38,501 nt of DNA from Promethearchaeia archaeon. GTDB taxonomy: Archaea > Asgardarchaeota > Lokiarchaeia > Sigyniarchaeales > SOKP01. Under the pieces are notes generated by a model. The model was not told where the DNA came from, ran no database searches, and was given only the letters and a program-made list of their open reading frames with translations. Location: the NCBI GenBank assembly GCA_029856125.1, contig JAHQWJ010000056.1, forward strand, positions 1-38,501, given 5' to 3'. Within the stretch, counting starts at the first letter, position 1. Every line of letters starts with the position of its first letter. Shown one piece after another: positions 5,824-35,866 of the stretch. Both the position numbers and the translations under genes were made by a program.

Positions 5824-7500
5824 TTATTTCTTTGTTCTTTTCTTTGCTTCCTTTTCTCTTAAAGTTCTCCTTAGAATTTTTCCCACTCCACTTTTCGGGA
5901 GGCTTCGGACAAACTGTACTTCCCTAGGATACTTGTAGGCCGCTAAGTTTTCTTTTGTGAAATCAATAATGTCTTGTTCGGTAACTTTTCCCTTACTCTC
6001 CTTTTTAAGTAGGATAAAAGCCTTTATATCCTCACCTTTGATAGGATCGGGAACGCCAATCACTGCACATTCTTGTACTGCTGGATGTTCGTATAAAACT
6101 TCTTCAATTTCTCTCGGATAAACGCTGTGTCCCTTGTATTTTATTAGATCCTTAATCCGATCCAACAAAAACAAATAGTACTCGTTATCCAGTCGTCCAT
6201 AATCACCAGTTCGCAACCATTTATAGCCACCCGCTTCAAAGAACACAAGTTTATTTTCTTCAGGCCTATTGTGATAACCCACCATCACTTGAGGTCCAGA
6301 TATGACAACTTCTCCTTCTTCTCCCACAGGCAAAAATTCCAAATTTTCATTTACAATCCCAACTAGAGTATTGGGGAAAGGGTGACCTACGCTACCTCGC
6401 TTTAATTTTGACCAGACAGTAGCTGTTATAGCACCTGTGCTAGTTTCACTAAGACCATATCCTTCAGCCATTCTAAAACCAGTTCTTCGCTCCCATTCTA
6501 ATGCTAACTCGTCCGGAAGCGCACCTGCACCGCAATTGGCAAATTTTAAGGAAGTCATATCAACATCTTTCATGTGAGGTGAGTTTAAAATGTTAACAAA
6601 CATCGTAGGTACGCCAAGCATCATGTTTGGACGTCCTTCTCGAATCACTTCAGCGATTCGTTGAAGATCAAATGACGGAAGGACATAGGATTTCGAACCA
6701 AATAAACAACCAGCCAATAATTCGCAAGCTTGACCGTAGATATGGTACCAAGGTAACACAGACAGAGCGATGATGTTTTCTTTGAGATAATTCTCAATCA
6801 TATAATCAGAGCCTTGCTTAATAGCCCAAAGCATTGATACTATATTGCTATGCGATAAGAGAGCTCCTTTTGGAAGGCCTGTTGTTCCACCAGTATATTG
6901 TATTATAGCAATATCTTCTTTAGGATCGATCTTAGCATCAAACTCAAGAGGTTCTTGGTACTTTTCCAATAACTTATCGTAATGAATGATTTTGTCTGTT
7001 TCGGGAACGACAATTTCTTCGTCCATTACATTTAACATGATTACTTTACTTAATGATACTTTATCAGCGACTTTCTCATATTCCCGGGCGAATCGGTCGA
7101 TCATTATTAAATATTTAGCTCCAGAATCATTAATTTGGTAAGCAAGTTCTCTCCCAGTGAATAAGGGACTAATAGCAGTCAATGTAGCTCCAAGATATAC
7201 CGCAGCAAAATAAGTAATAGAGAATTGAGGGCAATTCGGAAGCCAAAGAGCCAAAACTTCACCTTTTTTTACTCCTAAATCTTTTAGCGCAGCTGCAAAT
7301 CTTCTAGTTAATAAATCTAACTGCTTAGTAGTAAACTCTTTTCCAAAAAAGTCCAACATGACATGATCTGGAAAATTTTCATCATTATACTTGTATACAT
7401 CAATTAACGACATATCTTCAGGAATATCAACTTCTGTGGTTATTCCATCTGCAAGGTAATCTTTCCAAGAACGATTTTTAATATAATCTGGAAGTTCCAT
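5824..7500 (-). CDS. Long-chain fatty acid--CoA ligase (AMP-binding family)
   Basis: QYTGGTTGLPKG, EGYGLSET, TGD, DRIKDLIK, YPREIEE and LPKSGVGKILRR; start placed at ATG 7500 after GATGTGA. Confidence 0.93.
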   Translation of the reverse strand: MELPDYIKNRSWKDYLADGITTEVDIPEDMSLIDVYKYNDENFPDHVMLDFFGKEFTTKQLDLLTRRFAAALKDLGVKKGEVLALWLPNCPQFSITYFAAVYLGATLTAISPLFTGRELAYQINDSGAKYLIMIDRFAREYEKVADKVSLSKVIMLNVMDEEIVVPETDKIIHYDKLLEKYQEPLEFDAKIDPKEDIAIIQYTGGTTGLPKGALLSHSNIVSMLWAIKQGSDYMIENYLKENIIALSVLPWYHIYGQACELLAGCLFGSKSYVLPSFDLQRIAEVIREGRPNMMLGVPTMFVNILNSPHMKDVDMTSLKFANCGAGALPDELALEWERRTGFRMAEGYGLSETSTGAITATVWSKLKRGSVGHPFPNTLVGIVNENLEFLPVGEEGEVVISGPQVMVGYHNRPEENKLVFFEAGGYKWLRTGDYGRLDNEYYLFLLDRIKDLIKYKGHSVYPREIEEVLYEHPAVQECAVIGVPDPIKGEDIKAFILLKKESKGKVTEQDIIDFTKENLAAYKYPREVQFVRSLPKSGVGKILRRTLREKEAKKRTKK

Positions 7501-7738
7501 ATAAATCACATCTTTTTTTTGTTGTTTTAAACTTAAAATATTTTATTATTGTAAAATCAAATTTTTTTAAGTAAGTCTTAAGATTCTCTAATCATATTAA
7601 AGCTTTTTTTAAAAAAAAAAAAGACAACTGATTGAAACATTAATGGAAATTACAGTATATGATCTTTCTCATCAGTATTAAAAAGAATAGATAATGTAAA
7701 TTTATCATAAAAATAATAAAAATCCTGAAGAAATCTTT

Positions 7739-9088
7739 TTATGGTTTGATAATTGGAGTTAAGCAATTAGGACAAACATCCCAATTTAATTTAACTTGGT
7801 AATTACAATTTGGATTGGGACATTCAATTTCTTTTTCTTCTTCAAGAGATGCTATTTTATATGCTACGCTCAACTCGCTTGCTGCCTCAATATCTTTTAG
7901 TAATCCAGATCCTTGAAAATTTAAACCGCACCTAATGCATATATTAGATAAATCATTTTTTAACACAGTCTTTCCACATTTAGGACAAAAACCCTGTAAT
8001 AACTTTAAACTTTGAAATAATTCGGTTTCCTCAGAATCTGAGATTGAAACTAGATTTAGATCTTCATAACGCTCAGAGTTGTTTATTATATTGTATAAAG
8101 AGTTTTTTCCTCCTTCTGCTTTTAACAGTTTTTTAGACTGTAATGCAATATCCATCAAGGATGCCTTTGGAATACTTATCTCTAGAGCATATTTAATTAT
8201 CATTTTCTCAACCAACATTTCATAAGGTTCTTTTATTCCGCTAATCCCTTGGGATTCATTCATATCCCATATTAATTCCATTCCTAATAATTTCTCAGTT
8301 ATTTCTTCGGCCAATCTATCTAAATCTAGGTCAGAGATCATTTTTTCTTCAGCTATGCTTACTTCAATTATCTCGTTTATTAAATTATCTTTAATTAATC
8401 GAATGGTAGTAACACCTAGTACATCTTCTCTGTGAAAAAAGAATTTATCCTCGCCCCGACTAAACATATATAATCCTAAATCGCTGGATAAAAGACGATC
8501 TACATAAAAATCTATCCTTAATTTTTTTACATTATAGTGTTTACAGAATTCTGTAATTTCAAATTTAAAATCTCTCGTCAGAACAGAATTATTGTAAATG
8601 TAAAAGAGCGTAAGATATAAATCACGATTTTGCTCTATAAGAAAATAATTTTCACCCATATTAATAATGTTTCGACTGATATCTGTTATTATGGAATCTG
8701 CAACGCTAATTTCTTTGTAGAAGGTTTTTAATTCAGATAGGTTCGAGATAAGATCATTTATTTCACTAAAATAAATCGATTCATCATAACTAATGTAATC
8801 CTCACCAAGCTTTTCTGTACCTAAATCTGTTATAAAATATCGCTGCTCTTGTAAGTTCTTGGAGGAATTTCTAAATATTTTTTTTTCAATGTTATTTTTA
8901 GAGAGATGGAACTTTATATATTTAGAAACTGTAGATCTACTTAAACCAGAATATTCTATAATATTTGTGAAACGTAATGGCCCTAAATTCCGTAATAAAT
9001 AAAGAATACGCATATCATTTTGATCAATTTTATTAATCTCAGATAAAACTTTTTCTTTTACTTTGGCAGTTATCGTGAATTTAGACAT
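7739..9088 (-). CDS. Winged-helix DNA-binding protein with C-terminal double zinc ribbon
   Basis: N-terminal GPLRFTNIIEYSGLSRSTVSKY...YFITDLG (wHTH); C-terminal CPKC, CIRC, CPNPNC and CPNC. Confidence 0.75.
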   Translation of the reverse strand: MSKFTITAKVKEKVLSEINKIDQNDMRILYLLRNLGPLRFTNIIEYSGLSRSTVSKYIKFHLSKNNIEKKIFRNSSKNLQEQRYFITDLGTEKLGEDYISYDESIYFSEINDLISNLSELKTFYKEISVADSIITDISRNIINMGENYFLIEQNRDLYLTLFYIYNNSVLTRDFKFEITEFCKHYNVKKLRIDFYVDRLLSSDLGLYMFSRGEDKFFFHREDVLGVTTIRLIKDNLINEIIEVSIAEEKMISDLDLDRLAEEITEKLLGMELIWDMNESQGISGIKEPYEMLVEKMIIKYALEISIPKASLMDIALQSKKLLKAEGGKNSLYNIINNSERYEDLNLVSISDSEETELFQSLKLLQGFCPKCGKTVLKNDLSNICIRCGLNFQGSGLLKDIEAASELSVAYKIASLEEEKEIECPNPNCNYQVKLNWDVCPNCLTPIIKP

Positions 9089-9321
9089 AAATATAAAAAA
9101 GAAACTAGGAAATTTATACTTTTGCCTATACTTATACTTTAGTTTTAGTATAGTTGACTCTAAAGGATTATGGATCTGGACCTTGCTTCATCTAAAAATA
9201 CATTCTTACCTAACTAAACTTCAATTTAATTAAAAATACCCTTGTTTTTAAGTAAAAATTTTCACATTACAATAGTAATAACTAGATTATTAAAAAAAAT
9301 AAAAAAAAGATGTGAAAAGAC

Positions 9322-9573
9322 ACGACTCAATATCGATTCAGATTAACTGGTGTTCCACCAGACCAAGCTATTAAATTAATTGAAGTAGATCCAAACCAAT
9401 CTATAGCAGAAATTAAGAAAACAGTTCAACGAGAATATAAACTTAATCCGATTCTTGCTATTCAATTTATCTTTAAAGGAAAAGTACTTCCAGACCAGCT
9501 AAAGTTTGCCAAGATAGGGATCCACCCCAAGAAAGACGTGATAACAGTTATGGCGACCCAGGCTGGCGGATAA
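9322..9573 (+). CDS. Ubiquitin-like protein (83 aa, C-terminal GG), probable ACG start; missed by ORF track
   Basis: (M)TQYRFRLTGVPPDQAIKLIEVDPNQSIAEIKKTVQREYKLNPILAIQFIFKGKVLPDQLKFAKIGIHPKKDVITVMATQAGG*. Segments LIEVDPNQS/IAEIKK/QFIFKGKVL parallel ubiquitin TLEVEPSDT/IENVKA/RLIFAGKQL. In-frame TGA at 9313-9315 bounds the frame. Confidence 0.88.
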   Translation, partial: TTQYRFRLTGVPPDQAIKLIEVDPNQSIAEIKKTVQREYKLNPILAIQFIFKGKVLPDQLKFAKIGIHPKKDVITVMATQAGG

Positions 9574-9579
9574 TAAATA

Positions 9580-9600
9580 TTTTTTTAATTTTTTCTCTTT
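9580..9600 (+). terminator. Oligo-T archaeal terminator-like tract after the ubiquitin-like gene
   Basis: tttttttaattttttctcttt begins a few nt after the TAA stop. Confidence 0.5.
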
Positions 9601-9635
9601 CTATTATATTTTGCAAAATCTTACAAAAATAGTAT

Positions 9636-9842
9636 TTAAGTTTTAAATAAACTTAAGGCCTTCTTAACCATTTCTCTATAATTATATTTATCTCGTTCAA
9701 AATCATAACCAATAGATCCTAACACAATTTCAACATTAAACTCATCATAATCATAACCCAGTTCTTCGATGAAGGCAATGCCGTCATAAACACCATTCAA
9801 CCCATTCCCAAGATCGTGCGAATAAATACCACAAAAATCAGA
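9636..9842 (-). pseudogene. Probable gene remnant (68 codons, N-terminus missing)
   Basis: SDFCGIYSHDLGNGLNGVYDGIAFIEELGYDYDEFNVEIVLGSIGYDFERDKYNYREMVKKALSLFKT* is protein-like but cut upstream by an in-frame (TAA)n tract. Confidence 0.4.
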
Positions 9843-9863
9843 TTATTATTATTATTATTATTA
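9842..9863. repeat. (ATT)7 trinucleotide microsatellite
   Basis: attattattattattattatta. Confidence 0.85.
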
Positions 9864-9918
9864 CTCTTCCCAAGGTAATAGCGTTTAACATGCAAGATTT
9901 ACCTGATAAATTTGATCC

Positions 9919-35626: not shown

Positions 35627-35866
35627 ATTAACAATAGGAAAAAAGTTGAGTTAATTGCTGAAATTTTAGATAGATATGACGATAGTGAATGCTTTTATTG
35701 CGGTGGGACTTTAAATGGTGATTTAGAAAGCGACGATTTCGATGACGGATATTCCGACGATTGGTGTTCTGACTGTTCCAAAGGAATTGACCCGAATGAT
35801 GACTGGGAGGAAGCCTGTTTAAATGCGATAGAGAAAATTATTCACGATAAACCTTTCAAAGCATAA
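35627..35866 (+). CDS. Small acidic Cys-rich (CxxC...CxxC) protein, probable ATT start; missed by ORF track
   Basis: (M)NNRKKVELIAEILDRYDDSECFYCGGTLNGDLESDDFDDGYSDDWCSDCSKGIDPNDDWEEACLNAIEKIIHDKPFKA*; TTTATATA box at 35601-35608 and AGGTGTGA directly upstream; in-frame TGA at 35621. Confidence 0.75.
   Translation: MNNRKKVELIAEILDRYDDSECFYCGGTLNGDLESDDFDDGYSDDWCSDCSKGIDPNDDWEEACLNAIEKIIHDKPFKA

Follow-up and report, generated by a model that had tools for sequence, protein, structure and literature searches.

Initiation at ACG behind a Shine-Dalgarno sequence as the probable start of a conserved ubiquitin-like gene in Lokiarchaeia

How is a ubiquitin-like protein made from a gene that has no canonical start codon? 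The question is raised by positions 9322-9573 of a stretch of 38,501 nucleotides from a Promethearchaeia archaeon of the Lokiarchaeia (contig JAHQWJ010000056.1), here called the window, which is C56 among the contigs of a 99%-complete genome of 3.69 Mb (G000). A list of the canonical-start open reading frames (ORFs) of the window is blank at this position. A sequence-only reading of the window had proposed that an 83-codon frame lies in the gap, that it encodes a ubiquitin-like protein (Ubl), and that it is translated from the ACG codon at 9322. On the evidence given below, we regard 9322-9573 as very probably a functional ubiquitin-type modifier gene whose mRNA is translated from that ACG.

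Read on the plus strand, the 5' end of the region is AAAAAAAAG ATG(9310) TGA(9313) AAA GAC ACG(9322) ACT CAA TAT CGA TTC AGA, and the 3' end is GCT GGC GGA(9568-9570) TAA(9571) TAA(9574). Counted from the ACG, the product is TTQYRFRL...VMATQAGG, 83 residues. The only in-frame ATG ahead of the body of the gene, at 9310, is directly followed by TGA, as the sequence-only reading had said. Inspection of the frame found no ATG, GTG, or TTG between the TGA at 9313 and the C-terminal VMAT, hence the gap in the ORF list. The strand opposite the gene holds frames of 40 codons at most, and an Rfam search of the window returned zero RNA families. The location of the frame in the ORF gap, its VMATQAGG-TAA ending, and the oligo-T that follows were all borne out by the sequence and the ORF list. 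Archaeal transcription terminates at oligo-T tracts, and the two runs 3' of the gene (Table 1) are probably a terminator.

The encoded protein falls with ubiquitin by sequence and by predicted structure. Pfam family PF00240 matched residues 17 to 80 at 39.5 bits (cut-off, 25.4), the best PF00240 match in the genome, and no ThiS, MoaD, or Urm1 family appeared among the Pfam matches of the protein, even at E values of up to 10. The best sequence matches in the PDB were ubiquitin and the Ubl chains of Get5/Mdy2, with the ubiquitin chains aligned over LEVEPSDTIENVKAKIQ and LIFAGKQL. These results agree with the earlier assignment to ubiquitin proper rather than to MoaD/ThiS/SAMP. With 25 relatives as input, AlphaFold2 gave a model (pLDDT 93, pTM 0.82) that has the elements E2-8, E17-22, H28-38, E45-51, H62-65, and E73-80, the beta-beta-alpha-beta-beta-3(10)-beta order of a beta-grasp fold, with an extra short helix in the beta1-beta2 loop (VPPDQAI). 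The top Foldseek matches of the model were ubiquitin, NEDD8, SUMO, and ISG15, with TM scores against ubiquitin of 0.75 to 0.83 at a root mean square deviation of about 2.1 to 2.4 Å (0.77/0.83 for 1ubq). The fold prediction that had been proposed as a check on the ubiquitin-like character of the frame thus came out as a beta-grasp resembling ubiquitin.

The free terminal Gly-Gly that had been read from the window is there: the C terminus, ...AGG, lies directly at the stop, and G82 and G83 are invariant in the 25 relatives. About two-thirds of the orthologues (loci L008-L127) have one extra residue after Gly-Gly (S, F, L, V, I, N, C, A, Y, or K), and one orthologue has two; the window copy stops at GG. 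Residues beyond Gly-Gly would imply C-terminal processing in the species that have them. The beta-grasp fold and the C-terminal Gly-Gly are shared with eukaryotic ubiquitin and NEDD8, the single residue after GG in many orthologues is a feature of eukaryotic ubiquitin precursors, and extreme sequence conservation is a further likeness to ubiquitin. The archaeal protein differs in being only about 20% identical to eukaryotic ubiquitin, in the extra beta1-beta2 helix, in a tail of ATQAGG rather than LRLRGG, and in its single gene, which is neither a poly-ubiquitin nor a ribosomal fusion. Judged by sequence and model, the protein is a ubiquitin-type modifier with a predicted role in conjugation.

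Orthologues show what stands at the start position in other genomes. The gene is single copy in G000, with no second copy of the family, and 37 of 41 related genomes (G000 counted) have an orthologue, at protein identities of 96 to 100% within the genus and 75 to 90% across the order; in more distant members of the genus, 39 to 51 of the 82 codons differ at the synonymous level. A scan of GTDB species genomes yielded 80 further loci, nearly all labeled Promethearchaeota/Promethearchaeia (Lokiarchaeia-type Asgard archaea). One locus, L050 (DATKTW010000116.1), is identical to that of genome G010, yet it was deposited as 'Candidatus Nanopelagicaceae bacterium'; this contig is probably from a mislabeled or contaminated metagenome-assembled genome.

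The codon aligned to 9322 was taken from all Ubl loci, and after removal of duplicates there were 89 distinct loci from the Promethearchaeota (Lokiarchaeia-type). ATG stands at this position in 41 loci, ATT in 38, ACG in 5, TTG and ATA in 2 each, and GTG in 1, so that each variant is one base from ATG. The ACG state occurs in five species genomes that come from different projects; an ENA metagenome contig (L150) supplies a sixth ACG sequence. The ACG at 9322 is in exact register with the ATG of the orthologues, behind the same ribosome-binding site, which upholds the start proposed from the window. Across this alignment, the start codon of the family appears to turn over freely among ATG, ATT, ACG, ATA, TTG, and GTG. 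Parsimony on a gene tree (246 nt) gave three ACG changes and nine ATT changes, of which well-supported branches force one and two, respectively.

The rarity of ACG starts, and nothing more, would suggest an error of assembly or sequencing, with T as the true base at 9323. Logan contigs from two other studies (X6 and X9) cover 9242-9389 (depth, 42) and 9249-9832 with zero differences, and so read ACG and not ATG. The identical ACG recurs in the five species-level genomes and the ENA contig, and we give practically no weight to an error. A recently inactivated pseudogene that has lost its ATG would likewise lack a canonical start and be skipped by gene callers. Pairwise comparison of four ACG genomes gave 9 to 32 synonymous and 0 nonsynonymous differences over 82 codons, which is strict purifying selection rather than the relaxed selection of a decaying gene. 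All six ACG sequences encode an identical protein, and the Ubl of the other ACG genomes showed neither frameshifts nor stops. Such a lack of protein change across 83 codons, against this amount of silent divergence, would not be expected of a gene that is no longer translated. The Shine-Dalgarno (SD) sequence and the ACG are conserved too, in what is the sole family copy of a nearly complete genome, and a pseudogene is exceedingly unlikely. For practical purposes, the identical ACG in independent contigs and the absence of nonsynonymous change (dN = 0) exclude both an assembly error and a pseudogene. The ACG itself is invariant in the ACG genomes; the next threonine codon varies among ACT, ACC, and ACA, and ACG makes up 13.6% of the threonine codons in the long ORFs of this genome.

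The 16S rRNA of this genome has the 3' end GGATCACCTCCT, and the expected SD sequence is therefore AGGAGGTGATCC. A purine-rich GGTG/GTGA motif was found 5 to 8 nt upstream of the start position at the loci inspected. The window has the leader AAGATGTGA, and the remaining ACG genomes have AGGATGTGA, a consensus match with one internal mismatch; the predicted duplex energies are -5.1 and -9.3 kcal/mol, respectively. A 15-mer, AAAAAAAAGATGTGA (A8-GATGTGA), lies at 9301-9315 on the plus strand, 6 nt ahead of the ACG, and again at 7520-7506 on the minus strand, 5 nt ahead of the ATG at 7500 of an AMP-binding ligase gene, confirming the nearly identical leaders that the sequence-only reading had pointed out. 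Several clear ATG gene starts across the genome have GATGTGA 4 to 8 nt upstream; within the window the heptamer showed no enrichment (4 sites versus 3.3 expected). Since GATGTGA fits the anti-SD sequence and precedes ordinary ATG starts, the ATG-TGA at 9310 is a ribosome-binding site. A start-stop element should not be read into it: GATGTGA is an SD variant, and its ATG is in frame in only some of the ACG genomes. At the ligase, the longest ORF begins at a GTG (7509) inside GATGTGA (window 7498-7512, minus strand); the ATG at 7500, which has GATGTGA as its SD 5 nt upstream, is the likelier start.

The same element could be read in another way, with initiation at ATG 9310 or GTG 9312 inside GATGTGA and passage of the TGA at 9313 by read-through or recoding, or by a +1 frameshift. 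ATG 9310 shares the Ubl frame in three sequences (the window, G010, and ENA contig L150), and there is a public gene call in which TGA is read as Trp. The spacer from SD to ACG, which is 6 nt in two ACG genomes, is 7 nt in three (L003, L004, and L049), which takes the ATG out of the Ubl frame and would call for another shift from the GTG. Because such spacer indels shift the embedded ATG and GTG between frames, the sequence 5' of the ACG is noncoding, and there is no conserved start inside the SD. In sister genomes L005 and L053, GGATGTGA precedes an ordinary ATG. No second SD lies ahead of ATG 9310, and the GATGTGA motif itself fits the anti-SD, all of which makes a start within the motif highly improbable.

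Initiation downstream of the ACG, for example at the in-frame ATT codons 17 or 20, would give a shortened protein, and ATT apparently does serve as a start in this genome. Such a product would be without strand 1 and the beta1-beta2 loop, residues 2 to 16 are perfectly conserved, and no SD lies ahead of either ATT, so that we consider a downstream start to have only the slightest chance of being correct. A different solution would be C-to-U editing of the mRNA, as in plant organelles, which would turn ACG into AUG. ACG is the sole near-cognate codon that a single C-to-U change makes into AUG, it is conserved at several genes, and no RNA read spans 9323. The ATT of 38 loci and the ATA of 2 loci stand at the same position and are beyond C-to-U repair, whereas near-cognate pairing is one mechanism that covers all the start variants. 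To our knowledge, there is no mRNA editing system in archaea, and editing is accordingly a very improbable explanation.

Initiation at the ACG itself would proceed as follows. The leader AAGAUGUGA would pair with the 3' tail of the 16S rRNA and position the 30S subunit, and initiator Met-tRNA (anticodon CAU) would then pair with ACG despite the second-position mismatch, the codon very likely being decoded as Met. The product, MTQYRFRL..., would be the same protein as that made from the ATG of relatives, and the weak start may tune its expression. Mean predicted SD pairing was -9.9 kcal/mol for the ATT, ATA, and ACG loci versus -4.5 kcal/mol for the ATG loci, and an SD at -7 kcal/mol or stronger was present at 38 of 45 near-cognate loci versus 8 of 41 ATG loci, a raw contrast that is descriptive since the loci are related. 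This pattern among related sequences fits a strong SD compensating for a weak start codon.

Several points weigh against translation from the ACG, or against the generality of the pattern. As far as we know, ACG initiates very poorly in those bacteria for which measurements exist, and the SD of the window, AAGATGTGA at -5.1 kcal/mol, is the weakest in the ACG group. The link between weak starts and strong SDs amounts to one independent pair on supported branches. The 246-nt gene tree is weakly resolved, leaving one to three origins of ACG. A search of run holders found no RNA run on record for 8900-9900; two contigs labeled 'metatranscriptomic', one from each of two runs and probably DNA, cover 9365-9569 and 9460-9702, and neither reaches 9323. 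A literature search, incomplete in its coverage, turned up no account of ACG starts, or of near-cognate initiation as a systematic feature, in archaea.

Other genes of the genome bear on how an ACG start should be viewed. The genome was scanned for an SD followed after 4 to 8 nt by a codon at the head of a long frame that lacks a canonical start in its vicinity. Expressed for each codon relative to its occurrences at SD spacing, the rate was 2.0% for ATT, 1.3% for ATA, and 1.3% for ACG (4 sites), with a background of about 0.5%. A gene of the glyoxalase/VOC family (Table 1) has ACG in G000 and G003 and ATG in G010 behind an identical leader, AAAGGTGAATTCTAA; in relatives farther away the codon is ATG or TTG. 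Of 22 relatives, 17 carry ACG behind GGTG at the gene for subunit C of the A-type ATP synthase (A-ATPase), with protein identities as low as 51%; one relative has ATG there and one has TTG. The occurrence of ACG at these two genes points to a recurrent, long-lived initiator in the genus, of which the Ubl gene appears to be one case. At a further candidate, a PIN-domain gene on contig C63, the ACG comes right after a TAG stop and 7 nt behind AAAGGTG.

Near-cognate starts extend to the translation machinery. The gene for aIF1, a factor that polices start-codon choice, has ATT behind GGTTGTGA in all 17 of the genus genomes inspected, and TTG, GTG, ATA, or ATG in other families of the order. Bacterial infC (IF3) and pcnB start at AUU. 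The ATT of aIF1 recalls the AUU of infC, and feedback on stringency may be envisaged by analogy, which is speculative. At ribosomal protein uS4, ATC lies 6 nt after AAGGTGA, from which the product would begin, with GDPRRLKKK directly after that codon. Within the window itself, a 78-codon frame has ATT 4 nt after TTAGGTGTGA and no Pfam match; it may be another ATT-initiated small zinc-binding protein. The genome has an initiator-type tRNA-Met(CAU), which has A1:U72 and an anticodon stem with three G:C pairs, and an ordinary initiator of this kind fits near-cognate pairing. No candidate for an unusual initiator tRNA was seen among 16 tRNAs, an incomplete set obtained with aragorn without intron handling. 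The lineage can evidently live with near-cognate starts, and possibly makes use of them.

Table 1. Location of the features discussed in the text (coordinates without a prefix are window positions)
Feature	Location	Strand	Remarks
Ubiquitin-family gene	9322..9573	+	83 codons, ACG 9322 to GGA 9570; TAA 9571-9573; second TAA 9574-9576
ACG, inferred near-cognate initiator codon	9322..9324	+	Aligned with orthologue starts
Shine-Dalgarno-like AAGATGTGA, embeds ATG-TGA	9307..9315	+	6-nt spacer to ACG; complementary to 16S tail
Two oligo-T runs, T7 9580-9586 and T6 9589-9594	9580..9594	+	From sequence; after double stop
Divergent partner, 449 aa: N-terminal winged helix, helical domain, two C-terminal zinc ribbons	7739..9088	-	Weak Pfam/NCBIfam matches to MarR, HTH_5, Zn_ribbon
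Divergent intergenic region	9089..9306	.	Conserved blocks 9112-9147 (three TATAC repeats) and 9215-9251 (A/T-rich, TATA-like)
78-codon frame NNRKKVELIAEILDRYDDSECFYCGG..., no canonical start	35627..35863	+	
Glyoxalase/VOC-family gene, ACG start	G000:C84:62937-63377 = L128:201-641	+	
A-ATPase subunit C gene, ACG start behind GGTGA	G000:C135:47538-48590 = L130:201-1253	+	
PIN-domain and zinc-ribbon gene, ACG candidate	G000:C63:58765-59316 = L129:201-752	-	
aIF1 (SUI1) gene, no canonical start	G000:C84:118620-118958 = L149:1426-1764	+	
Ribosomal protein uS4 gene, apparent ATC start	G000:C82:28861-29361 = L131:201-701	+	

A bolder proposal is that ACG, AUU, and AUA behind strong SDs make up a programmed 'start-stringency regulon' in Lokiarchaeia, in which AUU-started aIF1 would autoregulate and, through its level, set the output of a gene set that includes Ubl, A-ATPase subunit C, and others. 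IF3 autoregulates through the infC start, and eIF1 does so through its own poor context. We consider a regulon of this kind unlikely as matters stand. If it were true, eIF1-type control of ACG and AUU starts, as in eukaryotes, would already be active in the archaeal relatives of eukaryotes.

The neighborhood of the gene was also considered. A gene for a winged helix-turn-helix (wHTH) protein adjoins Ubl divergently in 80 of 80 loci, and the genes downstream of Ubl are not conserved. The C-terminal zinc ribbons of the wHTH protein are missing in some clades. Alignment of the intergenic region from eight related genomes gave a mean identity of 84% with long invariant runs, and its blocks are more conserved than silent coding sites; they are probably promoters or an operator. 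For the Ubl mRNA, a leader of about 45 to 65 nt is predicted. From its HTH domain and the synteny, the neighbor is a probable transcription regulator of the gene pair. A complex prediction for Ubl and the wHTH protein (score, 0.03) gave no indication for or against binding.

Within 6 kb on either side of Ubl are the genes for the AMP-binding ligase, the 449-aa wHTH/zinc-ribbon protein, a DUF1295 membrane protein, NadA, a NUDIX protein, a GNAT protein, and several products without assigned function, and no E1, E2, E3, or JAB gene was found in that range. A small ThiF-family gene (948-1688) lies 8 kb upstream, beside a Roadblock gene. Elsewhere in the genome, where ThiF matches were taken as E1 and UQ_con matches as E2, there are a Ubl-E1-E2-JAB operon on contig C65, a second E1/E2 pair on contig C128, and six JAB matches. 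The earlier description of a stand-alone Ubl consequently holds in part: no conjugation or JAB gene is adjacent, but the gene has a divergent wHTH neighbor at every one of the 80 loci, and E1/E2/JAB clusters are present elsewhere. The operon Ubl matched PF00240 at 25 bits, compared with 39 bits for the window Ubl, which is a distant paralogue of it. The operon Ubl, E1, E2, and JAB genes have ATG at the start of the open frame or a few codons from it, and a check of their starts found none that needed a non-canonical codon.

Ubiquitin-family modifiers encoded in operons are known from archaea, as in the Ub-E1-E2-RING-Rpn11 cluster of Caldiarchaeum subterraneum (PMC5654768, PMC6043591), and an Asgard ubiquitin system has been published as Ub-ESCRT (PMC9192718). 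The window Ubl resembles them as an archaeal modifier of the ubiquitin family, in a genome that has such an operon on C65 too, and differs in lying outside the E1/E2/JAB clusters, paired with a wHTH gene.

The absence of a canonical start has left its mark on public annotation. Standard gene callers accept only ATG, GTG, and TTG, and the gene is therefore dropped, shortened, or wrongly extended. In the ESM Atlas, the ACG form is present from residue 8 only, with that residue read as Met; NCBI/ENA protein P0003 has 23 spurious residues added from an upstream TTG; and in ENA protein P0002 (MWNNTTQ...) the TGA is read as Trp. The expectation that gene callers would miss this gene is borne out in that public records misread it in three different ways. 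A reading of P0002 as a variant whose ATG and TGG stand in frame was rejected, as its DNA reads ATG-TGA. Public proteins of the family, one of them from Lokiarchaeum ossiferum, are named 'ubiquitin-like protein' or 'hypothetical protein', so the family is already annotated where ATG is present.

How does an ACG start of this kind compare with known cases? In the bacterial AUU starts of infC and pcnB, a conserved non-canonical initiator likewise stands behind an SD, and aIF1 here also has a weak start, the ATT described above. The Ubl codon differs in being ACG, with a mismatch at the second position. We know of no natural ACG start in bacteria; a study in E. coli reportedly obtained initiation from all 64 codons. 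In eukaryotes and viruses, near-cognate ACG and CUG starts are used with initiator Met-tRNA at reduced efficiency, and their fidelity is controlled by eIF1, the homologue of aIF1. The likeness is in the reading of ACG by initiator Met-tRNA. In Ubl, by contrast, the site would be set by SD pairing rather than by scanning and Kozak context, and the ACG would be the sole start rather than that of an alternative isoform. The nearest archaeal case is the Asgard tubulin atubA, for which a 'rare ATT start codon' was proposed because the deposited annotation was without the first beta strand, the repair relying on a near-cognate start suitably spaced from a ribosome-binding site (PMC13394414). Both are Asgard genes whose annotation misses the first beta strand and that have a near-cognate start near a ribosome-binding site. 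The atubA case is a single anecdotal ATT from Heimdall-type archaea, whereas the Ubl codon is ACG and has comparative support from about 90 genomes. As far as could be found, a conserved ACG initiator behind an SD has not been described for archaea or bacteria. New here are the ACG state of Ubl with dN = 0, the codon spectrum of 89 loci, the contrast in SD strength between weak-start and ATG loci, and the invariant wHTH partner.

For the biology of the family, roughly half of the genomes considered have ATT, ACG, or ATA at the start position of the most ubiquitin-like and most conserved Ubl of the Lokiarchaeia, and surveys of the presence or absence of Asgard ubiquitin that are made from predicted proteomes can be wrong. 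The invariant pairing with the wHTH gene offers a concrete lead to the regulation of Ubl. Several essential genes in this genome, including that for A-ATPase subunit C, use ACG, and aIF1 itself is at ATT. The stringency of start-codon choice may therefore be relaxed or regulated in the lineage closest to eukaryotes.

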